From a virus (taxonomy: Duplodnaviria; Caudoviricetes): 64,000 nucleotides of DNA. The stretch is taken from positions 14,357 through 78,356 of IMG/VR virus record IMGVR_UViG_3300007171_000061, one strand, 5' to 3'. The notes below the pieces were generated by a model that was not told where the DNA came from, did no database searches, and worked only from the letters and a program-made list of their open reading frames with translations. This document shows, in pieces, positions 1 to 51,614 of this stretch (position 1 is its first letter; each line of letters starts with the position of its first letter). The translations under genes were made by a program, and so were the position numbers.

Positions 1-861
1 ACTACCCAATACACCAACAGGAGTATAACGCTTTGCATCATAGAAATTGCGAATAAATTCATCTTGCTTACCTTCTTCAAGATAAGTGTTAGGGTCTTTA
101 TATCGCATGTGCATAATCTTAACTTTACCTTTTGGCAAAGCCTTGACTACATCTTCTGTTGCTTCTTTACCAGCTTTGTCATTATCATAACAAACAATGA
201 TGTTATCAAAACTATCAAAGAAACGATACTGCGCTGCGATTTGTTTATGTGAGTTAGCACCTGTAGTTGGTGATACTACAGCCATTTCATAATCACCATT
301 GCGACTTTTATTGTAATCAGCAAACATCTGATATGCAGATAGTGCATCAAGCTCACCTTCAGTGATCAGAATGTACTTGCCGCCACGGTTAAACTTAAAC
401 TGCATGAACAATTCACAGTCAGCACCTGTTCGACCTTTGGAATAAAAATTCTTTGGTACTTCACGGATTTTATATCCTACGATTTGACCGTCTTGTGTGG
501 TTGGGTAATACTGCTCTTCAACTTCACCGTCATCATCATACGCATACCGTACACCAAAAGGTTTTGTAGTTTCATCTTTTAATCCACGGAAACCCTTACC
601 AGCTACACCAGTTACGGATTTAATCTCTGCATTTTCATCTGGTGTCATTGCAGGTTTACCACTTGGTTTAACTTCCATACTCTTTTCTTCCTTTGCTGTT
701 GATCTTACTTTGGTTGTCTTCTTAGGGTTTAACTCCTTGAATTCACTAGACGGTACTGTATGTTCACAGACAAAGCAATGTGAAGAGCCACCTTCGTATA
801 CTGCCTTACCATCTGAGCTACCGCACTTATCGCAATTTGTATGCTTGATGAATGCTGCCAT
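1..861 (-). CDS. T7 gp4-like DNA primase(-helicase), N-terminal part; runs off the left edge
   Basis: ATG at 861 gives MAAFIKHTNCDKCGSSDG...HCFVCEH (Zn-binding domain), then TOPRIM motifs EGELDA and YDNDKAG; frame open to position 1; absent from the ORF track. Confidence 0.9.
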   Translation of the reverse strand, partial: MAAFIKHTNCDKCGSSDGKAVYEGGSSHCFVCEHTVPSSEFKELNPKKTTKVRSTAKEEKSMEVKPSGKPAMTPDENAEIKSVTGVAGKGFRGLKDETTKPFGVRYAYDDDGEVEEQYYPTTQDGQIVGYKIREVPKNFYSKGRTGADCELFMQFKFNRGGKYILITEGELDALSAYQMFADYNKSRNGDYEMAVVSPTTGANSHKQIAAQYRFFDSFDNIIVCYDNDKAGKEATEDVVKALPKGKVKIMHMRYKDPNTYLEEGKQDEFIRNFYDAKRYTPVGVLGS

Positions 862-869
862 TTTACTCC

Positions 870-1889
870 TTATTCATTTTTCAGTAACCAAGAATTTGAG
901 ATTGACTTAAAGCTACGATCATGCACAGTATTGCTCTTGAATACAACACCTTCACGATTGCTACCATTTAGCAAAGATTTACCTTCTGCAAAATCCAAGA
1001 TAGACTGAATACTTTGTTCTTTAATATCAGTAGATTCTGCAATAATTGGTACATGTTTCAAACCAATACGTTCACACGCTGCTTTAAGCTGCACAGGCAA
1101 AATGTATTGCCCCGTATGAGTATTGTACATGTCGTACACATAGAAGTCAAGCTGTGTTTTGTACTGATTACCTTGGATGCCTTCACCAATCATTTCACCT
1201 TGAATAGCCATGCCCTTCATAAAATTGCGGCGCATAACATCTTCAATCTGAAACTTACGTGCTACTTTCCAGAATGAATTTGCTTCGTCTTCTTTCAGAT
1301 CAAGATTGCGTGAGCATACGTGAAATACGTCTTCATCGTCAAGATAGAAAGTGCAAGATGAACCATCAAGTTTTTCTGTAATAGACCAAGTGTCAAGCAT
1401 GAGTTCATCGAACTGTTTACTTAAGTTTTGAATACGCTCTTGATCAGTCTTTGGTACTAACGAAGGAAAATTGCCTCGTGCCATACCAGCGAGTTGAGCA
1501 TTCATTGGGCGTTCCCACTTTAGGATGCCAAGATGTTCTGTAAGGTCCAATCCTTCCGCAACAAGATGACCAGCACCTTTGATTGTATCCTCTGGAATCG
1601 GCAGCAACAAACCTTGTGAGAGTTGACCACGTAGTTTTACTGTACGTAGACGTTCACCTTTTACACCTTCAAATTCCCTTGGCTCTTTGCCTTTGGATAG
1701 GAATGGTGCTAATTCTGTTGGAATCCATGCATCAATTTCTACGTAACAAGCGAGTGAATCAACTTGAAATTCACCCTTCTTAACTACCACTTTCCAACCA
1801 TCGACTACAGCTACTTCAATAGCGTCTGCACCTTCGATTGGTTCAATAGCTGCAATCTTACGAATCGTTGCTAATTTTCGTTCTGTCAT
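870..1889 (-). CDS. RNA ligase (DRB0094/Rnl2-like) with N-terminal OB-type extension
   Basis: Motif I TEKLDGSS, GEMIG, REGVVFK, FKSISN; N-terminus IEPIEGADAIEVAVVDGWKVVVKKGEF. Confidence 0.85.
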   Translation of the reverse strand: MTERKLATIRKIAAIEPIEGADAIEVAVVDGWKVVVKKGEFQVDSLACYVEIDAWIPTELAPFLSKGKEPREFEGVKGERLRTVKLRGQLSQGLLLPIPEDTIKGAGHLVAEGLDLTEHLGILKWERPMNAQLAGMARGNFPSLVPKTDQERIQNLSKQFDELMLDTWSITEKLDGSSCTFYLDDEDVFHVCSRNLDLKEDEANSFWKVARKFQIEDVMRRNFMKGMAIQGEMIGEGIQGNQYKTQLDFYVYDMYNTHTGQYILPVQLKAACERIGLKHVPIIAESTDIKEQSIQSILDFAEGKSLLNGSNREGVVFKSNTVHDRSFKSISNSWLLKNE

Positions 1890-1905
1890 AACTTCTCCTT
1901 TTCTG

Positions 1906-2181
1906 TTATTTGAAATATCTAACTCTAGATAAATAAAGCTGATGAACTTCAGGTTCTAGATCACAGTGGAAATAAATTCTCCAATACTCTCGACCCATGA
2001 GTTTTTCTCGTGCATTTGTACAAGTCTGAAAGCATATCACAAAATCTTCAGTTTCAACTTCAAGATTTCTGTAGCTAAATTTTGTAAAAGAAAGTTCTTC
2101 TGTTGCTTTCGTAAAAGCTTCCGTAGCTTCTACTTGTGTTGCATACACATTTAGTATTGGAAGTTTCCGGCGTTGCATCAC
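1906..2181 (-). CDS. hypothetical protein
   Basis: 91 aa ORF overlapping the ligase stop; co-oriented. Confidence 0.6.
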   Translation of the reverse strand: MMQRRKLPILNVYATQVEATEAFTKATEELSFTKFSYRNLEVETEDFVICFQTCTNAREKLMGREYWRIYFHCDLEPEVHQLYLSRVRYFK

Positions 2182-3083
2182 AAATCATCTTTATGCCGGA
2201 TACCGACAAGAACGGGAAAGCGTGGTACATTATACCCGTTTCCAACATCAAAATACTTAACCTTTGCAAGTTGACCCATCAGTGTTTCCCTGCGTTCCCA
2301 CAAGTCCTCACGGATAGCATCAGTCATACCGCTACCACAACTGAACGTATCGCCTTTAGAGGTGCATAGAATCAACGATCCCATAGTGTCTAAGGCTACC
2401 ATACCATCCTTAGCTGTAGAGCGTGCTGTACGCCCTAATTCATTGGTCTTTGCTTCATTGGTGTTGGTGTACTTAGGCTCCCAACCGATGATTTCAAATT
2501 CATTGTCAACAAAGCGTTTTACTTTTTGTAGCTCAGGATTCTTTGTGCCAGATCGACCGCATTTGTATTTAGCATTTGGATCATGAAGCATGATACCTTC
2601 AGCACCTTGCGCCAGCATCTTAGCTTCAAATTCATCTATGTCTGAATCTTCCCATACAGGTAAATGCTCTAGTACTTCTACTCTAAAGGGTAGTGCATCT
2701 CTTCTTTGCAATTCAATCAAACGAGCATAACGCTCAAGCCAATTAGCAGTAGGATGCCAGCGATCAAATACCCAAAAGGTAAAGTTGGGTTCACCTTCAA
2801 TACGCATAACGCCAGAGGTACTTTGGTTAAATACATCAGGTGCATTCTTATCACCTACGATAAGCTCACCGTCCATACCATCTAGCATTTCCCAATGGTG
2901 TTTAACATAAGCTTGAATGCTCAGGTTAGGAATGCGCTTAAGGCTTCGGGTGTAAGCTACACCACCAAATACAATGCAGCGAATACCATCAAGCTTTTCA
3001 GACATGTAGAGATTATCTGGTTGTGTCTTTACTTTTGTTTGTTCGATTGCGAGTTGTGGTTTAAAACCTTCAGGTATAGTCAT
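2178..3083 (-). CDS. lig: ATP-dependent DNA ligase
   Basis: SEKLDGIRC, DGELI, EGIML, KVKRF, C-terminal OB with RFPV. Confidence 0.93.
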   Translation of the reverse strand: MTIPEGFKPQLAIEQTKVKTQPDNLYMSEKLDGIRCIVFGGVAYTRSLKRIPNLSIQAYVKHHWEMLDGMDGELIVGDKNAPDVFNQSTSGVMRIEGEPNFTFWVFDRWHPTANWLERYARLIELQRRDALPFRVEVLEHLPVWEDSDIDEFEAKMLAQGAEGIMLHDPNAKYKCGRSGTKNPELQKVKRFVDNEFEIIGWEPKYTNTNEAKTNELGRTARSTAKDGMVALDTMGSLILCTSKGDTFSCGSGMTDAIREDLWERRETLMGQLAKVKYFDVGNGYNVPRFPVLVGIRHKDDL

Positions 3084-3307
3084 ACTTCAATCTCCTTAAT
3101 TACTTTGCGTGATTTCTTAAAGTTTTTGTTTCTAAGATAGTCTCTTGCTAGTTGTTGCATTGCACTTTCTGCGCGATCTAACTCATTTCGAATATGATGA
3201 GTTTGCCAAAAGAGAGTATACGGAATTTTTGATTGTACAAAATATTTGGTTTCCCATATGTCGTACCAGTTACTGTACACTGACTTTTCAAGGATGCGAA
3301 ATTTCAT
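3080..3307 (-). CDS. hypothetical protein
   Basis: 75 aa ORF, 4-nt overlap with the ligase start. Confidence 0.6.
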   Translation of the reverse strand: MKFRILEKSVYSNWYDIWETKYFVQSKIPYTLFWQTHHIRNELDRAESAMQQLARDYLRNKNFKKSRKVIKEIEV

Positions 3308-3433
3308 CGTGCTACCACCTGCAATATCATATTAATACCTTGGATAACCATCTGCTGTTCCATAGGGTTCAACTGATGCCAATTGCGATTGTCACCAAAC
3401 TTAGCTGCTACTGCAGTCCAAAACTTTTCTACA

Positions 3434-18300: not shown

Positions 18301-18723
18301 ATGGCTTACGTTACAGAAGAAATCATCACTAAGGCTCGTACTGCTCTGAAAGCACTCAATAAAGAGTACGGTGTAAAAGCTACTCTGAGTGGCAAAGGAA
18401 GTAGCAGCTTGTGCTTGACTATTGCAGAAGGTAGTATTGACTTTATCGGTAATTACTGCTCTACTGTTAAGAATAAATGCATACTCCGTGATATTGATCA
18501 AACAATTACTTGGGTTCAACGTGAACAAAACGTAAGCGTTAACCAGTACTATCTTGACAGTTCATTCTCAGGTGTTGCTCTGGAGTATCTGGAGAAAGCC
18601 AAAGCTATCATGTATGCTGATCATTGGGACAAGTCAGATATAATGGCTGATTATTTTCACTGCGCATACTACGTTGATATGCGAGTTGGAAGTTATAAGA
18701 AAGGTTATAAATTGGTAAAATAA
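18301..18723 (+). CDS. conserved phage hypothetical protein
   Basis: MAYV...VNQYY...WDKSDIMADYFHCAYY..M.VG pattern. Confidence 0.7.
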   Translation: MAYVTEEIITKARTALKALNKEYGVKATLSGKGSSSLCLTIAEGSIDFIGNYCSTVKNKCILRDIDQTITWVQREQNVSVNQYYLDSSFSGVALEYLEKAKAIMYADHWDKSDIMADYFHCAYYVDMRVGSYKKGYKLVK

Positions 18724-18734
18724 GATGAAGTACT

Positions 18735-18761
18735 ACCCGAGATTAATTTCTCGGGTTTTTT
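18735..18761 (+). terminator. rho-independent terminator
   Basis: ACCCGAGA/TCTCGGGT hairpin plus T-run. Confidence 0.75.
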
Positions 18762-18815
18762 GCTTTAACTTTTACTTTTTGCTGGAAGATTAAATCGTAG
18801 AAATTTTGCTGCAAT

Positions 18816-18910: not shown

Positions 18911-18980
18911 CAGTCACAAACCATACCGTTCAGTCACAAAATGAACGATACAGTCACAAAATGAACGGATCAGTCACCAA
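18911..18980. repeat. four CAGTCACAAA-core repeats at exact 20-bp period (iteron-like)
   Basis: Copies at 18911, 18931, 18951 and 18971 (last is CAGTCACCAA), followed by an A-run. Confidence 0.9.
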
Positions 18981-18991
18981 AAAAAAAAAAG

Positions 18992-19059
18992 TTATACACA
19001 TATTGTCAGTCTTATATAAGAGTAAAATTGTGGATAACTAGCACTAGTGGTGTGGATAA
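18992..19059. promoter_or_regulatory. cluster of three DnaA-box matches
   Basis: TTATACACA 18992-19000; TGTGGATAA (reverse complement TTATCCACA) at 19029-19037 and 19051-19059. Confidence 0.65.
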
Positions 19060-19168
19060 CTTTTTCTAAGGGGATAGTACCAGCGACAAGGAAAACGGCT
19101 AAAAAGCGGGTTTAAAGCGATTCTAAGGGCATGGGTTTTTATACAGTGTGCATTTTATCGGTGTAATA

Positions 19169-19185
19169 TTGGCACGATTTATGCT
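19169..19185 (+). promoter_or_regulatory. sigma54 (-24/-12)-like site
   Basis: TTGGCACGATTTATGCT; GG and GC separated by 10 nt. Confidence 0.4.
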
Positions 19186-19457
19186 ACTCGCGTGCGCGTG
19201 CGTTATTTATTATGAGAGAATTCTAGCTTGGAAACCAAAGTATTCATTTAATAAAATGCAAATTATTTTCTAGGTGTTTACCCTAATAAATGCCAAAATG
19301 AATACTGAATCACTATATCGGGGGGTTTTTAGGTGTATAATCAAGGCTTACAATCAATCGGGGTTGTAAGGGTAAACGAAAGTTTACAGTTCTTTAAAAA
19401 TTGAGAGTTTTCTATAATGTATGCAAATAAAAGTATACATTACCCCAAAACTCACAA

Positions 19458-19679
19458 ATGAAAGTATTCAAAATGAAATTATCAATTGACTATATGAGAA
19501 AATCAATCAAAGATAATCAGTTGGATTATGTTACGATTAAATCAATTAGTGAAATGGATTATAATAAGATTAGTCTGATTATCGCATTATCAACGGGTTT
19601 TGCCCCATGTTCTGACGATATATATAATCTCACACAATCTTATACTAATGAAACTGGAGATAATCAAAATGGATTATGA
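19458..19679 (+). CDS. hypothetical protein (GATC-free block)
   Basis: ORF track. Confidence 0.55.
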   Translation: MKVFKMKLSIDYMRKSIKDNQLDYVTIKSISEMDYNKISLIIALSTGFAPCSDDIYNLTQSYTNETGDNQNGL

Positions 19680-19824
19680 GAATATAAAGAATCAAGTATA
19701 TAGTGCGACAATGCAAGCACTATATAATCGGGTAGATTATACGATTATCGGATTTAATACAACTCTGGATTATCTGATTATCTGGGATAATAATGGCAAA
19801 TGTAATATCAAATGGAGAAAATGA
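19669..19824 (+). CDS. hypothetical protein (GATC-free block)
   Basis: GGAGA RBS before ATG 19669. Confidence 0.55.
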   Translation: MDYENIKNQVYSATMQALYNRVDYTIIGFNTTLDYLIIWDNNGKCNIKWRK

Positions 19825-19981
19825 TTATGACAAAATCAGAATTTATTGATAGCGTATTATTTGCTTTATTTATTATTGCACCAGTATTCATTTATTGGAG
19901 ATAAAATTATCTGATAATATATTGATTTATTTTCAGTATATTATCGGGCTAATTTTGGCCGATTTTTGATAAACTATTATC

Positions 19982-20218
19982 ATGCAAAACAATCTTTTCG
20001 TTTCCACTCAATTTGTCACTTTGAAATCACTTGAAAATAACCCGCCTAAAATCGGGCAGTGGATTATGATTGACGGAAATCAGCGCGGGCAATATATGGG
20101 CAAAACCCGCGCCGGGGTCATCGTTGTTCGATATCAGAATGGAAAATTCGGAAGCAAAGCCGACACAAAATCAAATCATTACTTGCGTCAATTTGCCAAA
20201 GTTAATGGCGCAAAATAA
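19982..20218 (+). CDS. hypothetical protein (GATC-free block)
   Basis: ORF track. Confidence 0.6.
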   Translation: MQNNLFVSTQFVTLKSLENNPPKIGQWIMIDGNQRGQYMGKTRAGVIVVRYQNGKFGSKADTKSNHYLRQFAKVNGAK

Positions 20219-20246
20219 CCCGATAGTATAAACTGGAGAAAATCTA

Positions 20247-20483
20247 ATGATTATCGCAATTTATAACCATGAATATGGTAATGCTGTAAGGGCATTTTCC
20301 ACAATTGAATCAGCCAATGAATGGAAAGATTCTATTGCAAATGATTACTGGAATGATGTTTTTACAAGTGATACTCCAAAACCAGATACAAATATAGGTG
20401 ACGCTTATTTTACGCTCATGATTGATTATGTTGGGTACAATGAATCATTTGAAATTATCGAAAATATCACAATCGAAAGTTAA
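20247..20483 (+). CDS. acidic hypothetical protein (GATC-free block)
   Basis: GGAGA RBS; D/E-rich. Confidence 0.6.
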   Translation: MIIAIYNHEYGNAVRAFSTIESANEWKDSIANDYWNDVFTSDTPKPDTNIGDAYFTLMIDYVGYNESFEIIENITIES

Positions 20484-20487
20484 TACC

Positions 20488-20700
20488 ATGAAAACCCCAC
20501 GAAATAACCCGCGTATTATTTTGACAGTTTCTGGCGATAATATCACCGCAAAAGGCGTTTTTATAGATTATCGTGATAATATTCATTCATTCACAAAATC
20601 ATTTTCTGATGAAAATCAAGCAATGGATTATTTGCACAATATGCGAGAAAATGAAAATAAAGAATTTTCTATTCAAGTTAATCGAATAAATTGGAAATAA
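20488..20700 (+). CDS. hypothetical protein (GATC-free block)
   Basis: ATG 20488 just after the upstream stop. Confidence 0.55.
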   Translation: MKTPRNNPRIILTVSGDNITAKGVFIDYRDNIHSFTKSFSDENQAMDYLHNMRENENKEFSIQVNRINWK

Positions 20701-20725
20701 TACACAATCAACCGGAGATTATAAA

Positions 20726-21079
20726 ATGTCAGCTTTCATTTGTTCAGACTTGCATTTCAGTATTATCGCTTATTCAATTGAAGGATTAAACCCTTCGGTT
20801 AACCCTCAGGAATTAGCCGATAAACTGAAAAAAATCAATATTGAATCGGTCGATTTTAGGTACAAAACAAGAACACGCAAAACAAAATGTAAATTGACGC
20901 ATGATAAAAACAACTATTCTACCGCCGATATTATCCGGCTAATCCAATGCTGGAGTTATCAGTCATGCGAAGACGGATATTCTCTTGATTTTCTAATGAT
21001 GGATTCTTTTTTGTTGTCGCATTTTGATAATGAAGACATTAGATTTGCAAGCAATATATCGGATAAATGGAGTATTTAA
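20726..21079 (+). CDS. conserved early-region hypothetical protein
   Basis: MSAFI.S..H...N.ESV..RY...CWSYQSCE pattern; GGAGA RBS. Confidence 0.65.
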   Translation: MSAFICSDLHFSIIAYSIEGLNPSVNPQELADKLKKINIESVDFRYKTRTRKTKCKLTHDKNNYSTADIIRLIQCWSYQSCEDGYSLDFLMMDSFLLSHFDNEDIRFASNISDKWSI

Positions 21080-21081
21080 TT

Positions 21082-21195
21082 ATGAGAATCACTTATCTCT
21101 ATTTTTGTACCCTCGGGGGAATTGCAGGCGGCAAAGTTTACAAGCGTGAGCACCACAATGGCAGTTTTGTTTATTACACCTACCACCTCTTATAG
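21082..21195 (+). CDS. small hypothetical protein (37 aa)
   Basis: GGAG RBS; MRITYLYFCTLGG...; read manually. Confidence 0.45.
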   Translation: MRITYLYFCTLGGIAGGKVYKREHHNGSFVYYTYHLL

Positions 21196-21202
21196 AATCA
21201 AA

Positions 21203-21853
21203 ATGGTAAAAATTAGCGTTACATCAAAACTCGACGGAATCAAATCCTGGTCACTGCAAGCCCTAGACACTTGCCCTGGCAGCATTGAATCGCCCGGCGT
21301 ATTAGTTGCAGCTTGCAGCGGTTGTTATGCCACAACGGGCAATTATCGCTACCCTAACGTTAAAGCCCCGCGATTGGACAATAAAGAGGACTGGCAGCGT
21401 TTAGACTGGGTTAGCGACATGGTGCAAGCATTGCAGGATTCTAGGTTTTTCCGTTGGTTTGATTCAGGCGATATGTACTCGCTTGGACTAGCCGAGAAAA
21501 TCCTAGAAGTGATAAAGCTAACCCCGTGGTGTAAGCATTGGGTCCCAACCCGAATGCATAAATTCCCGAAGTTCCTGCAGGTCTTGCAAAGCATGAAAGC
21601 ACAACCGAATGCCAGCGTGAGATTCTCAAGCGACAGCATAAGCGGGGGTTACACTGCAGGGTTACACGGGAGCACGATAACCGCCAGCAACGAACCCGCC
21701 GATGTACCTGCAGGGGTTACACTCTGCAGAGCCTATGAGCACGAAGGCAAATGCAGCGGGTGCAGAGCTTGTTGGTCAAAAGAGGTTGACGTTATAGCAT
21801 ACCCTGCCCACGGTGTAAAAATGAAAAAAATCATTAAAATAAGCAAGGGTTAA
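21203..21853 (+). CDS. GP88-like Cys-rich protein (putative Fe-S/metal enzyme)
   Basis: SWSL...TCPG...CSGCYA, FRWFDSGD, WVPTR, RFSSD, CRAY...CSGCRACW. Confidence 0.75.
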   Translation: MVKISVTSKLDGIKSWSLQALDTCPGSIESPGVLVAACSGCYATTGNYRYPNVKAPRLDNKEDWQRLDWVSDMVQALQDSRFFRWFDSGDMYSLGLAEKILEVIKLTPWCKHWVPTRMHKFPKFLQVLQSMKAQPNASVRFSSDSISGGYTAGLHGSTITASNEPADVPAGVTLCRAYEHEGKCSGCRACWSKEVDVIAYPAHGVKMKKIIKISKG

Positions 21854-21857
21854 TTAT

Positions 21858-21977
21858 ATGCATATAAAAGACATTTTCATTTTTCTGTTTTCAGTGTATG
21901 TTTTTTTGTGGGTTTGCATTTTGGGGGTAATGGCAACAGCAATTATCCGGTATAAAATCCAGCAAATTCTCGCATGA
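21858..21977 (+). CDS. single-TM micro-protein (39 aa)
   Basis: MHIKDIFIFLFSVYVFLWVCILGVMATAIIRYKIQQILA; read manually. Confidence 0.5.
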   Translation: MHIKDIFIFLFSVYVFLWVCILGVMATAIIRYKIQQILA

Positions 21978-21984
21978 TGTAAAC

Positions 21985-22023
21985 AGGGGTTGACCTTCAC
22001 GGGTTGACCCCCCTTTTTTTTTT
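21985..22023 (+). terminator. rho-independent terminator closing the GATC-free block
   Basis: GGGGTTGACC/GGTTGACCCC wobble hairpin plus T10. Confidence 0.7.
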
Positions 22024-22549
22024 GTTCTGATGTTTAAACCGAACGCCAGCGACAGCGACAACAGCAAAACACGCAACAGATCAAAACAGCAAAAAAAAAA
22101 AAATCGACTCCCTACCGTTTATACGCTTAGTGATTTTTTGTGATGTAATGACAGCTAATACCAAAAAATTCAAACCCAAAATGCATACAATAGATGCTAA
22201 CGCATAGTGAAACGAAAGGAATACCAGATATTTTAAAATCGTAGTATATCCAACCCTTACCCAGTGCTGGCCTATCAAGCACCCATGACTTACAGCAAAT
22301 AAAATCCACACATGCATCCCGTAAGTTTTAACCCTAACAAGACACTAACAATTGCTTCCAAAGCTGTTATCAGTACTCTGACACCCTCAAGAAGCTGCTT
22401 AAAACTGCTGTAGACAGCCTTAAATAGCACTCAGGATACCAACTACTAGTTATACTCAATATTGGCTTCTAGAGGCTTTAAACCCTTTGATATTTACCAA
22501 AAGAAAAAACCCCAAGGCTGTTAAACCAAGGGGTTGTAAATTTTAATTT

Positions 22550-23209
22550 TTATTTTTTAAGCTTCGTACTCTTAGCTTCAGCTTTAGCTTTCTTTTCCTG
22601 AAGTTCTGCTCTAAGCTCTAACCTTCGGATAATCTCTTCAGCATCAAACCAAAGCTCTTTACCCATAATAACTTCTTCAAGTTCTTTATCGGTTAGAAAG
22701 TCCTTGTATACGCTACCCATGAGATTGCGAACTTGCTTATCTACGAATGAAGCATGAGAGATAACATCCGACTGCTTACCAAAAGCTCCAAACGTAGCAG
22801 AGTGAACCATCATTGTAGCGTAAGGTGATACACTAATGCTCGGTGATGCCAGTGCAATCAAAGAAGCTGCACTAGCTGCTACACCTTCAATTTCAGCGTG
22901 TACATCTGCGTCAGTATTTTCAATAGCGTTGATAATAGCAATTGCACCATCCAGTTGACCACCGTAGCTATTAATCTTAAGGAGTAAAAGATCACCTTCA
23001 CCTAAAGAATCAACTGCTTGTAGCATCGTGCGATAATACTTAGCTTCTCTGATATTTTCATCTAGGTATACTTTAACACAACGATTTGTTTTGGTACTCT
23101 CAAAATAAGTTAAATGCTGCAGCGATCCACGTACAGTAACTTCATCATCATCATCATCGTCATTACGAGTCATCTTGGTATAATTCTTATAATTACTTAC
23201 GTTTTGCAT
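22550..23209 (-). CDS. clpP: ClpP-family protease
   Basis: INSYGG (catalytic Ser), AASAAS, MMVH, ELWF.AEE. Confidence 0.85.
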   Translation of the reverse strand: MQNVSNYKNYTKMTRNDDDDDDEVTVRGSLQHLTYFESTKTNRCVKVYLDENIREAKYYRTMLQAVDSLGEGDLLLLKINSYGGQLDGAIAIINAIENTDADVHAEIEGVAASAASLIALASPSISVSPYATMMVHSATFGAFGKQSDVISHASFVDKQVRNLMGSVYKDFLTDKELEEVIMGKELWFDAEEIIRRLELRAELQEKKAKAEAKSTKLKK

Positions 23210-23972
23210 TGGTTACTCCTTTGGTATTAAATTCATCAATTACACTGTTTTTCGTATATTCAGCTAAAATCTCATCTTCAAAAGCAATAACGAACTCTTT
23301 AGTCAATCCGCTGCGAACAACATGCTCTCTACTGAAGGTAGTAAAGCTGCAATCATTGATGTTGTACTTTACACAAATCTTCTCTAAGTACGTCAGTCCA
23401 TCCATGCCTTTTTTAACATCAGTTTGTGGACCTGTGTTATCACCGCAAAAGATAATCTGAGAATCGTTACCTACACGAGTAGTTAATGCTTGAATCTCCG
23501 GTACAAACAAATTCTGACTTTCATCTACAATAATGATGCTATCATTCCAGCTTCTACCTCGAATAGTCTCTAGGCTACAAATCTCAATGGTTTTATTCTT
23601 TAGATGAATCTCTGTAGTTGCTTTACCAAGATAATCCTCAAAGTAATCAATCATCTGTTGGTAAAAAGGAAGTAACTTCTCTTCTGCTGTTCCCGGTAAG
23701 AAACCAATACTTCTACCAGCCAACGGTTGATATGCACGAATCAATACAACTTTCTTAATATCACCATAATGCAATTTCTTAGCTGCATGATGAATAGCTA
23801 ACAAAGTTTTACCAGTACCTGCACTACCACGAGCTACAACCAAAGTATTATACTTCAGAGCTTCCAGTAATTCTTGCTGTTTATCGTTCATTGCATGTAA
23901 AACGGGGAATTGACTGCGCTGGAACTTCTCTTTTTGCACACGTTGTGATTGTACTTTTTGATTTCTTTTCAT
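23193..23972 (-). CDS. phoH: PhoH-like ATPase
   Basis: GSAGTGKT, GFLPG...K..P, IRGRS, DESQN, GD..Q.D, VRS. Confidence 0.93.
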   Translation of the reverse strand: MKRNQKVQSQRVQKEKFQRSQFPVLHAMNDKQQELLEALKYNTLVVARGSAGTGKTLLAIHHAAKKLHYGDIKKVVLIRAYQPLAGRSIGFLPGTAEEKLLPFYQQMIDYFEDYLGKATTEIHLKNKTIEICSLETIRGRSWNDSIIIVDESQNLFVPEIQALTTRVGNDSQIIFCGDNTGPQTDVKKGMDGLTYLEKICVKYNINDCSFTTFSREHVVRSGLTKEFVIAFEDEILAEYTKNSVIDEFNTKGVTNAKRK

Positions 23973-24009
23973 ATTATCCTTTCTATACTACTTTAGGATT
24001 TTGCTAATA

Positions 24010-24201
24010 TTAAAATTTTGCAATTCTTTTCTGTAAAATACCAGCATAAACCATCATAGAATAATACTGCATTTTTAATAATTCTTGCTCATCAATATCG
24101 AGTGAATCAAAAATTTTATTTGTAAAAAACATATAAAGTGCTTTAGCTTTATCATTTAAAGCATCATATTCGTCAATTACTCTTTGTTGATGTGGCTGCA
24201 T
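24010..24201 (-). CDS. crAss001_48-like small protein
   Basis: MQPHQQRVIDEY..L..K...Q...M..Y..IL..RI pattern. Confidence 0.6.
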   Translation of the reverse strand: MQPHQQRVIDEYDALNDKAKALYMFFTNKIFDSLDIDEQELLKMQYYSMMVYAGILQKRIAKF

Positions 24202-24235
24202 AAATTTCCTATATTATGTTTATAATTAAATACTA

Positions 24236-24499
24236 TCAGGTATTATCTTTTGGTTTACGACCTCGTTTAACTTCAGTATTAACTTCTGCATTATCTTGAG
24301 TAACAACTTCAGTGTGTTGTTGTACAATTTCTTTTGGTTTATCTTCAGCTTTAACCATACCAGTGACTAGCATTGAGCCGAATGCAATAGGTGCATTTTC
24401 ATTAGATTCAAAATCAAAGCGCCAACCCTCTAAAATAGCTTGTTGCGTTTTATCGCAAAATTCAAACAGGCTGTAAGTTTCAATTCTTTTAGTTTCCAT
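24236..24499 (-). CDS. hypothetical protein
   Basis: AGGAG RBS; C-terminal KRGRKPK. Confidence 0.6.
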   Translation of the reverse strand: METKRIETYSLFEFCDKTQQAILEGWRFDFESNENAPIAFGSMLVTGMVKAEDKPKEIVQQHTEVVTQDNAEVNTEVKRGRKPKDNT

Positions 24500-24537
24500 A
24501 AAATCTCCTTGTTAAAATTACATTGTACCACAAAAAA

Positions 24538-25347
24538 TTAAGATTGCAACCTCAAAGATAAAACTTCTTGTTGTTTATTTGCATACCATTCATTTGCCAA
24601 TCTCCAAGCCTCATCTTTACCATATTTATTGTAAGAGAAAAATTTAGAGATTCGTTTATATTTTTCAACAGATACTCTGGCAAGAGCGCCATTTTGCATT
24701 TCCCTTATGTTGTTATGACCAGATGTGTTCCTAGAAGATAAACCATTGTTGTTGAGTGACTTATTTTTTAAAGAGTTAGTCTCTTTGGTTACACATTCAA
24801 GATTTTCAATGCTGTTATTTGTTCTATCGTTATCTTTATGATTAATTACTAAATTTTCATCTTGCAAATCATTGAATAAAAACCAAACAATTCTATGTGC
24901 AAGAAATATTTTTCCATTTACCTGAACTCTGTAATAATTGTCTGCAGATGAGTGCCAACCTGCAATATCACCTTCACGACATTTACTAAAAGGCACATTA
25001 ATCTTCCAAGTAAGAAAACTAGGAGATGCTGGATCATATTGTAATTTTGAACGGATATCTTCTAAGTCAATGATTTTTGTTCTTGAATTAGATAGTTTAT
25101 TTACTAGTTTCCAATCCAATGGAGGATTATTTATATAATAATGTTCTAACTCTAAGGCATCCTCTTCAGATAAATTTTCTGCAAGTTTATCAACCTGAAC
25201 ACCTCCTGAATCTGACAAGCACTCATCGTATTTAGAACCTCTACCTGAAAAACGCAAAGCTCTTGGACCACTACCTTTTCCAATATAGAAAACGACACCA
25301 TCTGATACTCTTCTGTGAGTATATACGTAAAAATTATTATTTTGCAT
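24538..25347 (-). CDS. homing endonuclease: GIY-YIG-like + HNH + AP2-like domains
   Basis: FYVY...FYIGKG.G.R; LAHRIVW...INHKDNDRTNNSIENL; RNTSGHNNI..W.LA; own TTGACT-17-TACAAT promoter. Confidence 0.8.
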   Translation of the reverse strand: MQNNNFYVYTHRRVSDGVVFYIGKGSGPRALRFSGRGSKYDECLSDSGGVQVDKLAENLSEEDALELEHYYINNPPLDWKLVNKLSNSRTKIIDLEDIRSKLQYDPASPSFLTWKINVPFSKCREGDIAGWHSSADNYYRVQVNGKIFLAHRIVWFLFNDLQDENLVINHKDNDRTNNSIENLECVTKETNSLKNKSLNNNGLSSRNTSGHNNIREMQNGALARVSVEKYKRISKFFSYNKYGKDEAWRLANEWYANKQQEVLSLRLQS

Positions 25348-25692
25348 AAGTACCTTTGTTGTTGGATAAGGTTCCATTGTAGCATGTTCTAGTTGGAAAG
25401 TCAAGGTTTATTTAAGTCAACTAAAATATTTTGTAAAAGTACTTGACAAACGCTAATTTGTGTGATACCCTATAGAATACATAAGTATATAACATAGGTT
25501 ATTACATTAGTTAGTACCTATATTGTAATATACGTTATAATCTGCATTAACTCTATATTTAGTACTTATATAAGTATATCTAATAGTAACTACCGATGTT
25601 AACATTAAATGTACTAGTAAGTTAGTTAGGTAGTAAGTAAGAGATATAAATAACTTAAGATTAATATAGGTTATAATATAGATTCTATTCAC

Positions 25693-25726
25693 AGTAGTTA
25701 ACGTTAACTACTTAGATTATAATCTA
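25693..25726. repeat. two abutting perfect palindromes in an AT-rich intergenic region
   Basis: AGTAGTTAACGTTAACTACT (25693-25712) and TAGATTATAATCTA (25713-25726). Confidence 0.85.
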
Positions 25727-26016
25727 TATTAATAATCTATATTATCGGCAATAGTTTTATTATTTTATTTAATTAAAACATGCAGCTTGGTTCGCTCTAG
25801 CCGCGAGGCTTTCTTGCAGAAGGCTTGTTGAACTTGTACTAAAGCTGCTCAGTTAAAACCTTCAGCAAAGCCCCTAGAAGCTTCTGCAAGCTGTCAATTT
25901 TAAGTAGTCTAGGGCTAGGTAGCCTGAAGGCATGAAACGAGCATATAGAGCGTTTCAATCAATCTTCATGTTTGTTGTACAAGAGATTAAAAGGTCAACT
26001 TTAGGAAAGTATATTT

Positions 26017-26499
26017 ATGCAAGTAAAAGATTTAATTGATTATGACATATTAACTGGTGACTTCTTTATATTGAAGAACAATATTAAATACCGCAAGATA
26101 TTTCCAGATGAAGATGGTTATATTGTATTTTATAAAGACAATAAGAGAATTAAATTTAAAGCAAATAAAGTAGCAATTGAGTTGGTACAAAATATTATTG
26201 TACAAAAAGATAAAGTTGTACTGCATAAAAACTTAGATGAAACAGATTACAGATATTGTAACTTAAAGCTAATATCTAAAAAGACACACAATGCAATAAA
26301 GGAAGCTCATCGCAACTTATCTGGATATTTGAAACTACAGCCTCATCAAAAGGACATGTTCTGTTATGTACTCATCTGGAAAGAAAACGGTAAGGATAGA
26401 GTCCTAGTTGTACAAGATATTGTAATAGCGAAAAGAATGTACAATAAACTGCAGTTAAAGTACGCTAAGATTTTAAGTAAATACTGTGTGTTTGACTAA
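26017..26499 (+). CDS. degenerate HNH-like protein
   Basis: DYDILTG...DGY...KANKVA...LHKNLDETDYRYCNL follows the HNH_3 layout with eroded catalytic residues. Confidence 0.55.
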   Translation: MQVKDLIDYDILTGDFFILKNNIKYRKIFPDEDGYIVFYKDNKRIKFKANKVAIELVQNIIVQKDKVVLHKNLDETDYRYCNLKLISKKTHNAIKEAHRNLSGYLKLQPHQKDMFCYVLIWKENGKDRVLVVQDIVIAKRMYNKLQLKYAKILSKYCVFD

Positions 26500-26514
26500 A
26501 CATTGATATTACGC

Positions 26515-26543
26515 TTGAAATATCTACTTTTCTATGATATAAT
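26515..26543 (+). promoter_or_regulatory. sigma70-like promoter
   Basis: TTGAAA-17-TATAAT with TG extension. Confidence 0.7.
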
Positions 26544-26549
26544 CAAGCA

Positions 26550-26800
26550 TCTATGTAAATTAAACTTCTAGTCTTTAGTAAATCGTTGTATTAAGCGCAA
26601 CGACCCTGCTTATGACATTATATGGTTTAAACCTGCTGGATACAAACCTTTGTATGTTCGCTTGTGTACCCGTTTACTCCTTTCAGTCATAAGTATTTCA
26701 GTACAAGCTGGATAAGTAACCAGCACTAATTTCGCTTTGCTAAATTCGTAAAGCACTAACAATAGTATCTCATTGTAGACAAATCTACAGTGATTGTCCA
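26550..26800 (+). ncRNA. candidate structured RNA / long leader
   Basis: Five or six predicted helices directly behind a promoter; no convincing + ORF. Confidence 0.3.
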
Positions 26801-26817
26801 TAATGGCTAACAAAAAG

Positions 26818-27036
26818 AATAATACAACTATGAACTGCATTACATGCAACCGTTACTTCAAGCAAAACGTTTTCAACAAGAGTGCTGAATGCGAAGACTG
26901 CTTAGATCGTGCTTTCTTGGATTTAGATTCAGAAGTACAAGTTGACGTAGACTTACTAAGGAATCCTTCTGGTAAGACTAGTCCTGTATTCTATGACAGG
27001 GATGATCCTGAAATGGACTGCAGAGATTCTATCTGA
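26818..27036 (+). CDS. CxxC...CxxC Zn-ribbon hypothetical protein
   Basis: CITC...CEDC; start uncertain (26794-26830). Confidence 0.55.
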   Translation, partial: NNTTMNCITCNRYFKQNVFNKSAECEDCLDRAFLDLDSEVQVDVDLLRNPSGKTSPVFYDRDDPEMDCRDSI

Positions 27037-28380: not shown

Positions 28381-28943
28381 ATGAACAAAGAATATTTATC
28401 AGAATACTTTTATTATGATTCATCCAGTCAAGTTGTTTGAGATGGAAAGTCTGGAATGGTCAGAAAAATCATTCAAAAAGACATTCTGGAGATGTTGCGG
28501 GACACATTTCAACGCCCGATGTTAATAATCCAGATTATAAAAGATATAAAGTCTGTTTGTATAATAAAGAATACTTAGTTCATAGATTAATTTTGATTCT
28601 GCATGATATTGATCCTTCCAATCTTGCCGTGAATCATATAAATTGTGATCCACTTGATAACCGTATTGAAAACTTAGAAGTTTGTACAAGTAGAGAAAAT
28701 AATACACGTAAGAAATCTCATACATTGGACATGATGCAATCAAACAATACTTCTGGTGTTCTTGGTGTTAGAGAAACAGTAGTAGTTAGACCTTCAGGTA
28801 AAATTGACTACTATGCACATGCTTTCGTAAAAGCTGATGGTGAGTGTTTTCAGAAGAAATTCAACTACGCAAAATATGGAAAAGAAAAAGCTTGGCAGTT
28901 AGCCAAGGAATTTAGAGAAAATACATTTAAGGATTTATTATGA
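28381..28943 (+). pseudogene. HNH-AP2 homing endonuclease with a frameshift near 28428
   Basis: MNKEYLSEYFYYDSSS then TGA 28438-40; the other frame continues CLRWK...VHRL..NHINCD..DNRIENL..NNTSGVLGV. Confidence 0.75.
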
Positions 28944-47217: not shown

Positions 47218-50200
47218 ATGGATTTAGCAGAATTAAAGTTCGTAGTTGATACGAAAGAATTGGAAACTGCAGCTACTAGAGTTGCGGAATTAGGTACAGC
47301 CGTATCTAAATTAAATAAGCCGATGCAAGATTTATCTAAGGAATCTGCAAAGAGCAACAAAGAATTGTCCAAAGCTGAAGAAGCTGCTGCAAAAGCTGCT
47401 CTAGCGCAATTAAAGCTTCAGCAAGCGCAGGAAAAATCTACAGATAGCATTGGCAAGTCTGCGTCTGTATTAGAGCGTCAAAACCTCATTCTCGGCTACA
47501 TGGCAACAGGTCTATCAAAAGGACAATCGTCTTACATGGCTACAGCCAAAGCTGCTGGTGCGCTGGATGATGAACTTGAGCAATTAGAAACAACATTAAA
47601 ACTTCAACGTACTCTAATCGGTGGTGATCCATTTGATAAGAGTATTGGTTTGATGCAAAAGCTTCAAAATGAGTATAAGATAACAACTGAAGTAAGTAAT
47701 CTTTTCAATAAGAATTTAGGTTTAACTGAAAAGCAAATGGTTGATCTTGCTCGTGAAAAAGAAAGATTAATTGCTTTGTATAGTATTGAAGGCAGAAGCT
47801 TAGATGGTCTTGCTGCAGAATACGATCAGTTGATTCAAAAGAGTGTAAAAGTTAATCAAGCTAATGATGCTCGTACGGCAAGTATGAAAGCTCAAATTAA
47901 AGCACAGGATGATGCAACTAGAGCCAATGCTTATCTTGCAAAAGAAATGGAACGTGTTAATCGCTTGAATTCTGAAGGTACAGAAGTTACTAGTGCAACA
48001 AACAATAAACTGATTCGTTTTGAACAAGAGTTAAGAAAATCAGGTTTAACTGCATCAGAACAAGCATCTAAGCTTGCATTATATCGTAATGAATTATTAG
48101 CTACACAAAAAGCTGCAGGTAACCGTCAAGTCGATTATCTCTCAAGAGCTTTAGGTCCACAGATTACCGACATTGCCGTTGGTTTAGCTACAGGTCAAGC
48201 ACCTTTAACTATCTTGTTACAACAAGGTGGTCAGTTACGAGATCAGTTTGCTTTGGCTGGTGTTGCTAGTTCCGAAATGGGTAAGATGCTTATCCAAGCT
48301 AGTAAATCAATGGTTACCAGCATTAAAGATGTTGGTATGGCGATTGGTCAAGTATTTGTCAGTGCTATCACTGGTTCAGGTAAAGCTATTGCCAATTTTG
48401 GTATGCAAATTACTGGTACTTCTGCTTTACTCGATGTTTTTAACGCCAAGTTAATTGCTGTAGCAGGTGCAAATAGTTTACTTGTTAGAAGCTTTGCTTT
48501 CCTTGGTGCTGCATTTACTGCTTTGATTGGTACAACAGTTTTTGCTGCTATTGCTGCTTTCACAATGTTTGTTGTTTCAATCGGTAAAGTAATTAAAGAA
48601 GAAAACGAACTAAACCGTGCATTAAATCTTACTGGTGCAGCTATGGGTCTTAATTTGAACATGGCTTATGATGCTGCTAGAAGTATGCAGCAATTTGGTG
48701 TTAGTACTGGTACTACATTAACTGTTCTTACTGAAATGTCTAAGATCGGTGGTTTAAGTTCTAGGAGTTTACAAACTATTGCTACTACAGCTAGTGCATT
48801 AAAAACAGCTTTTAATATTCCTATTGCAGATACAGTAAAGCAGTTTAAAGAACTACAGGAAAAACCCACAGAGTCTTTAACTAAGTTAGCTAAGCAATTA
48901 GGTACAATTCCTCTTGAAGTTCTAAAGCAAGTCGATGCTTACGAACGTGCTGGTAATAGTATAAAAGCTGCTCAACTTGCAACTGAAACATACGCTAAAG
49001 CAGGTAAGGATGCAGCGGATAAAACTGTAGAAAATTTTGGCACAATTACTAGATTGGGTATATCTCTTGGTAAGATTTGGAATAAGACTTGGGAATCAAT
49101 CATGGGTATTGGTCGTAGAGATACCAATGAAGAACAGATTTCTAAACTTAGTGAAAGATTGTCGAAACTATTGGCAGCGCAAGACCCTCGTCAGATTGCT
49201 GCTAGAAAACCAATGGTTGATGCAACTATTGCTGAAATAAAAGCTATAGCACTTCAAGTTGCTGCTGAAAAAGAATTAGAAGAACAACGTGATAAAAATG
49301 CAGCAGATGCAGAAAAGTTTGCCGACGATAAAAAGAAACGTGACGAAGCTGCAAAGAAAGCCATCAAGGATAAACAAGATGCTGAGAAAGCATTTGCTGA
49401 TGAACTAAAGAGAGCTAAAGAGTTTTACAATGCTCAAGTCGGTGCAGTTAATAATTTAACCAAAGCTGAACTAGCATTGCAAAAAGTTAAAGAAAGCGCA
49501 GGTTTTAAAGCTGGTTCTCCTGAAGGTAGAAAGCAAATTGAGCAATTCTATGAACAAGCAAAAGCTAACGAATTGTTAGTTAAAGCTGAAAGAGACAGAG
49601 CTGCTCAAATGTCTGTAATTAATAGATTGGAAGGTAGAGTAAGTTTCTTAGGTGAAGATTACTATAATACGATGAAGATTCTAGATGAAGCTTTTATTGA
49701 TGGTAATGTTTCACTTGAGCAATATGCCGAACTCTTAAACAAACTATATCAGGGTACACCTCAAGCAAGAGCTTTTGCAAGCATTCAAGCGGAACAAGTT
49801 AGAGCTACTGCAGAACTTCAAGCACAATTAGCTGATGCTGATATGCAATCTGATATGCGTTTTAAAACAGAAAATGAAAAAGCGCAAATCAGAAGTCTGT
49901 CTCAGTTTAGAAAGAAAACAGCAGAAGCTGATGCCATCTTAGCTAAACAACTTGAAGATGCTAGACTTAGATTAACAGATGAAAATCTTGAAAAAGCAAA
50001 AGCTGGTTATGAAGAAGAAGCTAGACTCAGAAAACAACTTGCTCAAAGAACATACGATGAACAGCAGTTTTTGTTAAGTGATTCTGGTAGACAACAACTA
50101 GCGTATGCTAAAGCATTTGAAGACTTATTCAAAGGTATGGGTGATGCTATTGTAGATTTTGCACTAACAGGTAAAACATCATTTGGCGATATGGTACAAT

Positions 50201-50718
50201 CTATTCTTGTTGGTCTAATCAAGATGCAAGTCCAAATGCAAATGATGGGGTTGTTTAACGCAATGGGTGGTGGTAAAGGTATCATGTCATCTTTGACAGC
50301 AGCCTTCACAGGTACTCCTACACCTTCAGCTAAAGGTAACGTGTTTAACGGTGGTTCTATACAAGCATTCGCTAAAGGTGGTACTTTCACAAACGGTATT
50401 GTAAGCGCACCAACGATGTTTAACATGGGTCTAATGGGTGAGGCTGGACCTGAAGCTATCATGCCTTTACGTAGGGGCTCTGATGGTTCCTTGGGTGTTG
50501 CTGCTACAGGTGGTTCTGGTGGTAATGTATCTGTACAAGTTATCAACAACAGTAACGCACAAGCTACAACAAATGAAAGCGTTGACTCAAAAGGTAACCG
50601 CAAGATTGAAGTTGTAATCGGTGAAATGACTGCTGGTGAAATTTCTCGCAGTGGTAGTTCTTCTCAGAAATCTATTCGTTCAACATTTGGTATTCAACCT
50701 CAATTAATTAGGAGATAA
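47218..50718 (+). CDS. tail tape measure protein (lambda H-like)
   Basis: 1166 aa helical; PQITDI..GL.TGQ.P...LQQGGQL; FAKGG...GE.GPEAI. Confidence 0.92.
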   Translation: MDLAELKFVVDTKELETAATRVAELGTAVSKLNKPMQDLSKESAKSNKELSKAEEAAAKAALAQLKLQQAQEKSTDSIGKSASVLERQNLILGYMATGLSKGQSSYMATAKAAGALDDELEQLETTLKLQRTLIGGDPFDKSIGLMQKLQNEYKITTEVSNLFNKNLGLTEKQMVDLAREKERLIALYSIEGRSLDGLAAEYDQLIQKSVKVNQANDARTASMKAQIKAQDDATRANAYLAKEMERVNRLNSEGTEVTSATNNKLIRFEQELRKSGLTASEQASKLALYRNELLATQKAAGNRQVDYLSRALGPQITDIAVGLATGQAPLTILLQQGGQLRDQFALAGVASSEMGKMLIQASKSMVTSIKDVGMAIGQVFVSAITGSGKAIANFGMQITGTSALLDVFNAKLIAVAGANSLLVRSFAFLGAAFTALIGTTVFAAIAAFTMFVVSIGKVIKEENELNRALNLTGAAMGLNLNMAYDAARSMQQFGVSTGTTLTVLTEMSKIGGLSSRSLQTIATTASALKTAFNIPIADTVKQFKELQEKPTESLTKLAKQLGTIPLEVLKQVDAYERAGNSIKAAQLATETYAKAGKDAADKTVENFGTITRLGISLGKIWNKTWESIMGIGRRDTNEEQISKLSERLSKLLAAQDPRQIAARKPMVDATIAEIKAIALQVAAEKELEEQRDKNAADAEKFADDKKKRDEAAKKAIKDKQDAEKAFADELKRAKEFYNAQVGAVNNLTKAELALQKVKESAGFKAGSPEGRKQIEQFYEQAKANELLVKAERDRAAQMSVINRLEGRVSFLGEDYYNTMKILDEAFIDGNVSLEQYAELLNKLYQGTPQARAFASIQAEQVRATAELQAQLADADMQSDMRFKTENEKAQIRSLSQFRKKTAEADAILAKQLEDARLRLTDENLEKAKAGYEEEARLRKQLAQRTYDEQQFLLSDSGRQQLAYAKAFEDLFKGMGDAIVDFALTGKTSFGDMVQSILVGLIKMQVQMQMMGLFNAMGGGKGIMSSLTAAFTGTPTPSAKGNVFNGGSIQAFAKGGTFTNGIVSAPTMFNMGLMGEAGPEAIMPLRRGSDGSLGVAATGGSGGNVSVQVINNSNAQATTNESVDSKGNRKIEVVIGEMTAGEISRSGSSSQKSIRSTFGIQPQLIRR

Positions 50719-50721
50719 TCT

Positions 50722-51087
50722 ATGGCGTATACTTACATTTGGCCTACAAGCCTACCGCAAAGACCGCTAAGTAATTACTCTGAAACTATAGGCGTTATGG
50801 TCATGCGAACTCAACCTGACCTTGGACCTGCAAAACAACGCAGAAGAGCAAAGCGCCCTGATACATTGAATGTACAATTCGATATGTCTACAGCACAAGT
50901 TGAGACTCTGCGTTCTTTTATTCAAGACACATTACGTGGTACTACACGTTTCGGTTTCACACATCCTAGAACACTGGAGGTTGTTGAAGTCAGGGTTGTA
51001 CCACAAGGTGACGGTGCTATGTATACTACGAGTTATTTGCTACCTAATTACTGGCAAGTGTCTTTACAATTGGAGGTATTACCTTGA
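50722..51087 (+). CDS. distal/minor tail protein
   Basis: WP..LP...R...GPAKQRRR; follows the tape measure gene. Confidence 0.7.
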   Translation: MAYTYIWPTSLPQRPLSNYSETIGVMVMRTQPDLGPAKQRRRAKRPDTLNVQFDMSTAQVETLRSFIQDTLRGTTRFGFTHPRTLEVVEVRVVPQGDGAMYTTSYLLPNYWQVSLQLEVLP

Positions 51088-51605: not shown

Positions 51606-51614
51606 AGGAATATT

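Follow-up and report, generated by a model that had tools for sequence, protein, structure and literature searches.

A GATC-free string of small genes beside a DnaA-box array in a DC31-like phage: a candidate horizontally exchanged accessory cassette

The 64,000-bp stretch of viral DNA analyzed here (the window) spans positions 14357–78356 of the 78,356-bp IMG/VR virus record IMGVR_UViG_3300007171_000061 (G000). Between window positions 18968 and 22079 it carries a block of small, co-oriented genes without a single GATC site, which an initial annotation had read as DNA that enters the host first, in the manner of phage T5. We propose, with reasonable though not high confidence, that the block is a horizontally exchanged, fast-evolving cassette of accessory genes lying beside a conserved array of DnaA boxes. 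To judge from its sequence, the phage is a DC31-like siphophage of the freshwater Limnohabitans type. The nearest isolate, Limnohabitans phage DC31 (PQ492658, 76 kb), matches at 84% identity across 56% of a 7-kb query; it is a long-tailed phage, published as a circular assembly whose termini were not mapped (PMC12195039). The G000 record is rated 100% complete by CheckV and is a linear contig without end repeats, the ends of which do not lie at the block.

Organization of the block and its flanks

The block occupies the last part of a long array of rightward, mostly small genes and meets a short leftward cluster head-on (Table 1). The edge features named in the initial annotation are both present, a repeat/DnaA element at 18911–19059 and a terminator accompanied by C6T10 and A13 homopolymer runs at 21986–22103. 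About ten small co-oriented open reading frames (ORFs) with uniform GGAG(A) ribosome-binding sites had also been described: the ORFs are present, tightly packed and in several cases overlapping or abutting, but the uniformity does not hold, since a clear GGAG is found at five of them only. Searches of the block ORFs against Pfam and PHROG returned GP88/DUF7227 and unannotated PHROGs alone, none of them a family with a known function.

Table 1. Features of the block and its surroundings (window coordinates; G and L numbers denote relatives; percentages are identities).
Feature	Position	Strand	Remarks
Leftward genes	1–5 kb	-	
Long rightward array	5.5–21.85 kb	+	mostly small genes
Intrinsic terminator	18735–18764	+	closes upstream rightward array; 8-pair stem then T-run
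CAGTCAC(A/C)AA repeats	18911–18980	+	four units, exact 20-bp period
A12 homopolymer run	18979–18990	+	
DnaA-box group	18992–19059		TTATACACA on plus strand, one mismatch; two perfect TTATCCACA on minus strand, at 19029 and 19051
Conserved untranslated leader	19060–19457	+	promoter presumed; 85–88% to DC31 and G002
ORF1	19458–19679	+	73 aa; three hydrophobic-Asp-Tyr motifs; no family; 92% to DC31 homolog
ORF2	19669–19824	+	51 aa; overlaps ORF1 stop codon; GGAG ribosome-binding site; no family; 96% to DC31
ORF3	19821–19904	+	27 aa; hydrophobic peptide
AT-rich hairpin and spacer	19910–19981	+	
ORF4	19982–20218	+	78 aa; sole small ORF in all nine close relatives
ORF5	20247–20483	+	78 aa; a single relative (64%) in viral contigs; nearly unique
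ORF6	20488–20700	+	70 aa; homologs in L004, G003 (60–64%) and G004, G005 (42–45%)
ORF7	20726–21079	+	117 aa; no family; homologs in L004, G003 (65%) and G004, G005 (37–39%)
ORF8	21082–21195	+	37 aa; no relatives found
GP88-family gene (PF17338)	21203–21853	+	216 aa from this ATG; open frame from 21122
ORF10	21858–21977	+	39 aa; hydrophobic peptide
Strong intrinsic terminator	21986–22023	+	11-pair stem then C6T10
A13 run (T13 on minus strand)	22091–22103	-	3' end of converging cluster
Converging leftward cluster	22.08–25.4 kb	-	small ORF, ClpP-like protease, PhoH, HNH endonuclease
Region beyond leftward cluster			tRNAs, HNH gene, TerL (29295), portal gene, structural genes

Downstream of the terminator at 18735–18764 lies an untranslated region of 700 bp, which holds the DnaA boxes. 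The two minus-strand boxes at 19029 and 19051 are the sole perfect DnaA boxes in the window, and the CAGTCAC repeats hold the position that three plus-strand boxes occupy in relatives. For comparison, thirteen loci were collected by means of a conserved 140-aa ORF (ORF140, 18301–18723). In nine of the eleven other loci the spacer 3' of the ORF140 homolog contains three to eight perfect TTATCCACA boxes, and in two (L005 and L012) it contains none. The array lies approximately 600–1200 bp past the ORF140 homolog in L001 (DC31), L003, L006 and L008–L011. Typically three boxes on one strand precede two on the opposite strand, and in G001 the array is partly inverted. In the eight closer relatives the spacer boxes are the only perfect ones in the locus (10–20 kb), and L011 (G004) has a fourth perfect box elsewhere. 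A consensus DnaA-box cluster with an adjoining AT-rich tract and repeats is also what is found in iteron/DnaA-box origins; no initiator gene for the element was identified. The conserved array probably serves as a DnaA-dependent origin or as a control site, and the role of DnaA there may lie in replication initiation, in pausing of injection or in titration. So strongly conserved an array of perfect DnaA boxes stands out in a virulent phage that encodes its own primase-helicase, and the sole comparable case that we found is the injection-stop region of T5.

Foreign composition and mosaicism among relatives

The block had been called compositionally alien, and it is. Among 301 sliding 3.1-kb windows it ranks first, with a tetranucleotide chi-square of 2142 against a median of 396. 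The announced excess of CG dinucleotides and of CCC/GGG runs was likewise found and extends to CGGG and CGCG: CGGG, GGGG, CGCG and CCC/GGG are up 2- to 8-fold, GATTAT and ATTATC are over-represented approximately 10-fold, and TGCT, GCTG, AGCT, TGGT and TACT are depleted. The idea of a whole purged vocabulary was rejected, as GATC is the sole missing word. The signal consists of a shift in codon usage combined with a roughly 2-fold depletion of AG/CT and AC/GT steps. In core genes, both in the early array (5–19 kb) and in the late region (29–61 kb), GGT makes up 76–82% of the glycine codons and GCT 52–57% of the alanine codons, and ACT and GTA are preferred; in the block genes GGT falls to 7–25% and GCT to 10–15%, with GGC, GGG and GCC preferred instead. 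This shift accounts for the extra CG, CCC and GGG as well as for the shortage of TGCT, AGCT and TGGT. The block itself is heterogeneous, with a GC content of 0.24–0.43 per ORF in the AT-rich small-ORF part and of 0.48–0.49 in the GP88 gene.

Comparison with relatives shows a mosaic. From 18990 to 19963 the DNA is 85% identical to DC31, and from 19964 to 22192 no DNA match to DC31 is left, which marks 19963/19964 as a module junction. ORF4, ORF6 and ORF7 share just 60–83% protein identity with their counterparts in L004 and G003. In the gene maps of nine relatives ORF140, the spacer, ORF4 and the ClpP–PhoH genes are kept, the other small ORFs come in alternative sets, and the terminal gene of the cassette occurs in three diverged forms, all of them GP88 or DUF7227. 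AG/CT steps are below those of the flanks in the cassettes of all nine, across cassette GC contents from 0.26 to 0.57.

The assemblies of five of nine relatives are interrupted here. Five of eight metagenomic contigs end within this 3.3-kb region, as compared to 0.63 expected (P ~5e-4). Their ends are scattered over relative positions 847–3101; one break falls within an array of 63-bp tandem repeats, and another within an overlap of 111 bp inside a GC-rich gene. Strain-level variability and repeats fit this scatter better than one fixed genome end. The tandem array also explains why G003 had been flagged as having a direct terminal repeat. As separate observations, the 63-bp repeats (L006 end / L025 start, G003) stand between the ORF7 homolog and the DUF7227 gene, where an 80-kb contig breaks, and the cassette of G001 (L003 end / L024 start, relative positions 1900–3400) and that of L010 have a GC content of 0.53–0.57 in a phage of 37% GC, an insert more obviously foreign than that of the window.

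Moron or hyperplastic regions, known from lambdoid and T4-like phages, are cassettes of small ORFs that differ between close relatives. The block resembles them in its small ORFs of undescribed function, its swapped content between conserved flanks, its atypical composition and codon usage, its own terminator, and module junctions that fall in intergenic spacers. Content is variable and flanks are conserved, base composition and codon usage are both atypical, and clear terminators stand on both sides, with promoter matches at chance frequency. It differs from such regions in lying directly 3' of a conserved DnaA-box array, in always ending with a GP88/DUF7227 gene, and in that two cassette types are GATC-free.

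We picture the block as a self-contained cassette of the moron or hyperplastic kind at the close of the long rightward array of small genes. The upstream operon ends at its terminator, and the untranslated region with the conserved boxes follows; then comes the string of small ORFs, in which ORF4 is conserved, the others are swapped among relatives and the GP88/DUF7227-type gene is always last, and finally the strong terminator facing the converging ClpP/PhoH cluster. This layout, the mosaic structure, the composition and the statistics are observed directly. We infer that the cassette forms a single transcription unit of horizontal origin, with an accessory role such as host interaction or anti-defense. 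Its genes would have been acquired and exchanged horizontally, because they retain a foreign codon and dinucleotide signature rather than one adapted to the phage. The initial annotation had named, as its alternative, a recent acquisition from a GATC-avoiding donor: the foreign origin agrees with the codon usage; no donor was found.

The missing GATC sites and their possible origin

The GATC-free stretch is real. Neither the window (149 sites) nor the whole record (185 sites) has a longer gap than the 3111 bp between 18968 and 22079. The preceding 2.6 kb, for which at least nine sites had been claimed, contains ten, and GAT is indeed common in the block, with 67 copies followed by T, A or G and never by C. 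A second long gap, 2982 bp at 48744–51726, lies in and past a 1166-aa ORF (47218–50718); for two gaps of that length in one genome P is 0.006 under uniform placement. That the depletion would be significant under a codon-aware model does not hold at the genome level: the probability of a maximal gap of at least 3111 bp is 0.15 under a codon-aware synonymous shuffle, 0.10 under uniform placement and 0.06–0.11 under Markov models. Locally, a shuffle of synonymous codons that preserves the proteins and the block's own codon usage gives an expectation of 3.6–4.0 sites and zero in 1–2% of trials (P 0.01–0.02), a value that is post hoc, as the gap itself set the limits of the block. The gap goes only weakly beyond chance and is weak evidence.

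A naive expectation of 12.4 sites (GAT x ATC / AT) is misleading because the many copies of GAT and ATC stem from Asp-Tyr (GAT-TAT) and Ile-Ile (ATT-ATC) pairs of the AT-rich small proteins. The AT core generally avoids G and C as neighbors on both sides: of 40 CAT copies just 2 precede a C, as compared to 25% genome-wide, so that CATC is depleted too, GATG is approximately 3.5-fold low, and GATC is not among the ten most depleted 4-mers. GATC is not singled out, as these low counts of CATC and GATG show. Across the whole genome its observed/expected ratio is 0.59. We suggest that the missing sites would be mainly a by-product of AT-rich coding, of the loss of G and C beside GAT and ATC, and of this genome-wide under-representation, to which chance would add and possibly an ancestry in a GATC-avoiding gene pool.

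Among relatives the AT-rich cassette of the DC31 type (DC31, L005, L007, L008) is also GATC-free, with a gap of 4.9 kb in DC31. The cassettes of G001, G003, L004 and L010 contain three to eight sites, some within the homologs of ORF4 and ORF7, so that near-normal densities are found in four of nine relatives and three other cassette types are not GATC-free. Avoidance hence tracks certain cassette types and not the locus. Two distant relatives are purged almost throughout: G004 (L125–L129, 83,214 bp) has 0 GATC against 249 expected and 17 CCGG against 85, and G005 (L130–L133, 69,573 bp) has 3 GATC against 194 and 6 CCGG against 64. In this clade, GATC-directed restriction is consequently a real pressure. 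With some of its members purged of GATC and CCGG, the clade provides a natural system to study restriction-site avoidance and its spread by recombination.

The last point leads to the rival that survives best, although we regard it as unlikely: AT-rich cassettes of the window and DC31 types were recombined in from fully GATC-avoiding phages, and the patch was inherited rather than selected in place. G004 and G005 carry homologs of ORF4, ORF6 and ORF7 at the same locus, and the mosaic structure, the foreign codon usage, the dependence on cassette type and the two long gaps in one genome are all in line with it; GATC-free patches could spread by recombination. On the other hand, the G004 and G005 homologs are just 37–45% identical, more distant than some core genes, and the closest homologs (L004, G003) carry GATC. 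Contigs with outside homologs of ORF5 and ORF7 are GATC-poor at best (0.6–1.9 sites per kb) and never GATC-free, and CCGG, with five copies, is not avoided in the block. As a partial explanation of the missing sites, too, a GATC-avoiding gene pool seems doubtful.

The T5-like alternative, to which we give little credence, would give the genome fixed ends, with one of them at about 22.05 kb, where the converging genes meet. The block would enter first, purged of GATC because it is exposed before protection; the DnaA-box array 3 kb inside would act as an injection-stop signal via membrane-bound DnaA, and the small ORFs, transcribed towards the end, would be pre-early genes for host takeover or anti-restriction. 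The precedent is sound. In T5-like phages the untranslated injection-stop region, which adjoins the pre-early genes, has approximately eight DnaA boxes, and the first-step-transfer DNA of T5 lacks EcoRI sites (10.1101/866236); we find no GAATTC in the left terminal repeat of T5. Both systems have an untranslated repeat region with several DnaA boxes adjoining small genes of undescribed function that are transcribed away from it, and a stretch free of a restriction site (EcoRI in T5, GATC here). The T5 genes dmp, A1 and A2 run towards the terminus, a topology that the block shares. GATC is missing from two independent AT-rich cassette types, the purged relatives attest to the restriction pressure, and GP88 homologs lie near record ends in several isolates, which is suggestive only.

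A nearby genome end is conceivable in view of the terminase. The large terminase subunit, TerL, is 46.6% identical to the terminases of Pakpunavirus phages. Two of these, K8 and Adele, carry direct repeats of 1.2 kb at fixed genome ends (PMC4773840, PMC12846349), and the K8 repeat was mapped experimentally (PMC4773840). In Pakpunavirus (PaP1, K8, Adele), as here, a plus-strand small-gene array meets a minus-strand ClpP-like cluster, and the K8 repeat lies at this junction, upstream of the tRNAs and TerL. Pakpunavirus members are myoviruses of 92 kb, whereas the DC31-like phage is a siphovirus of 76–78 kb. The likeness is partial: gene order departs from that of K8 in that the nucleotide-metabolism cluster is inverted, and GP88 has no relationship to the gene that the K8 repeat contains.

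Several other observations speak against a leading end. When 15 proteins of the T5 left terminal repeat were searched by tblastn against the whole genome, no homologs of A1, A2 or dmp were found (best E 0.19). The segment measures 3 kb here and 10 kb in T5, and the boxes, three on the plus and two on the minus strand, differ in arrangement from those of T5, where paired boxes lie within inverted repeats that have a spacer of 52 bp; the array could just as well act as an origin. Relatives do not share the avoidance of the site, as four of them have GATC-bearing cassettes, and the block contains CCGG, the second word purged from G004 and G005. Contig breaks are scattered and do not fall at the 22.0–22.5 kb that the initial annotation predicted for an end, one of them being due to the tandem repeat, and the records of G000 and of the circular DC31 assembly (PMC12195039) are unbroken at the cassette. 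The codon usage resembles that of recent foreign DNA and not that of an adapted core early module. GATC avoidance as a signature of first-entering DNA thus fails both the codon-aware genome test and the comparison of relatives. Searches of the whole genome for Dam-type (PF02086) and N6/N4 (PF01555) methyltransferases gave no match to an enzyme that would protect the remaining DNA. We hold it improbable that DC31-like siphophages have fixed ends near 22 kb, an injection pause at the DnaA array and an exchangeable, restriction-site-poor leader cassette that is expressed first. If they did, a first-step-transfer strategy would have evolved outside the Tequintavirus group and in the absence of A1 and A2; with termini at the junction near 22 kb, DC31 grown on Limnohabitans sp. 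DCL3 would offer a cultivable system for a direct test of the T5 analogy.

That the block is ordinary, undistinguished phage DNA and its gap a pure sampling accident is very unlikely, as it is the top compositional outlier with distinct codon usage, is hypervariable among relatives and has its lack of GATC repeated in a second cassette type; for GATC alone an accident is viable, with genome-wide probabilities of 0.06–0.15 under four null models.

Four points weigh against the exchanged accessory cassette that we favor. The leader contains weak sigma-70-like promoter matches that are no commoner than chance, and a comparison of the spacer with the rest of the genome for a shared, repeated promoter or a dispersed motif gave chance 11-mers alone. 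No donor was identified: the nearest outside homologs show 33–64% identity and sit in contigs that are not GATC-free, and the viral-contig homologs of ORF5, ORF7 and GP88 are either distant or located in genomes with GATC; an exact-protein contig look-up for ORF7 gave no match. The four non-homologous genes of the DC31 cassette contain 0 GATC as compared to 3.3 expected (codon-aware, P 0.01), in a test that was set a priori and counts as one independent replicate. Finally, the gap is part of a wider GATC-poor domain of 7.9 kb (18968–26905, which also holds AT-rich HNH genes) with 4 sites against 11.6 expected (nominally significant in a genome scan, P ~0.01), and this may leave room for a local pressure or a shared GATC-avoiding ancestry. 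As an ordinary though well-marked accessory cassette, the block should not lend its GATC gap as evidence for a new entry mechanism.

The GP88 gene and other features of the locus

The last sizeable ORF of the block belongs to the GP88 family, matching PF17338 with an E-value of 8.7e-28 and 98.2 bits (gathering cut-off 24.4). The family comprises 1,941 representative clusters at E <= 0.001, and relatives at 70–77% identity occur in more than 500 viral contigs. GP88 genes elsewhere have a mean of two GATC sites and 13 of 80 have none, which makes their absence from the copy in the window unremarkable. In an alignment of 59 members, all of which match PF17338 and none PF04055, C24, C38, R84, G89, D90, N136, C175, C184, C187 and C190 are invariant and C41 is near-invariant. 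The cysteines form two motifs, C-x13-C-x2-C (C24, C38, C41) and C-x8-C-x2-C-x2-C (C175, C184, C187, C190), and the canonical CxxxCxxC motif of radical SAM enzymes is absent from the gene. The AlphaFold model has a pLDDT of 96.9. Compared by VIA-align, all of its top 18 structure matches are radical SAM enzymes, among them PFL-activating enzyme, QueE, lipoyl synthase and viperin, at Z-scores of just 4.7–6.6. Foldseek gave nothing at E <= 0.001 with the same model, a sequence search of the PDB with the GP88 profile gave no match, and nothing relevant was found in the literature on GP88, PF17338 or DUF7227. The model suggests that GP88 could be a minimal enzyme of radical-SAM-like type whose triad, C-x13-C-x2-C, is non-canonical, in which case a large uncharacterized phage family with a radical-SAM-like structure would offer a lead of its own. 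In isolates, GP88 homologs often lie near the record ends (CRP-2, CRP-4, CRP-603, CRP-113, CRP-125, CRP-171, AM24).

Of the smaller proteins, ORF1 matches DUF483 below threshold (E 0.075). ORF4 has a weak match to phrog_21585, for which no function is described and which it shares with gene F13 of DC31; its nearest named language-model neighbors, small SH3-like proteins such as KilR and R67 DHFR, score 0.84, below the trust threshold, and serve as a lead only. The same approach gave nothing usable for ORF7. ORF1, ORF2, ORF5 and ORF6 (19458–20700) each contain two or three hydrophobic-Asp-Tyr motifs (IDY, LDY, MDY, VDY), from which the 10-fold excess of GATTAT arises, and by these motifs the four may constitute a family of small repeat proteins. 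Further to the right, an AT-rich (GC 0.30–0.32), GATC-poor stretch contains three HNH endonuclease genes (phrog_99 and related), at 24538–25404 (minus strand), 26017–26499 (plus) and 28437–28943 (plus), which bracket both the tRNA cluster and the terminase gene.

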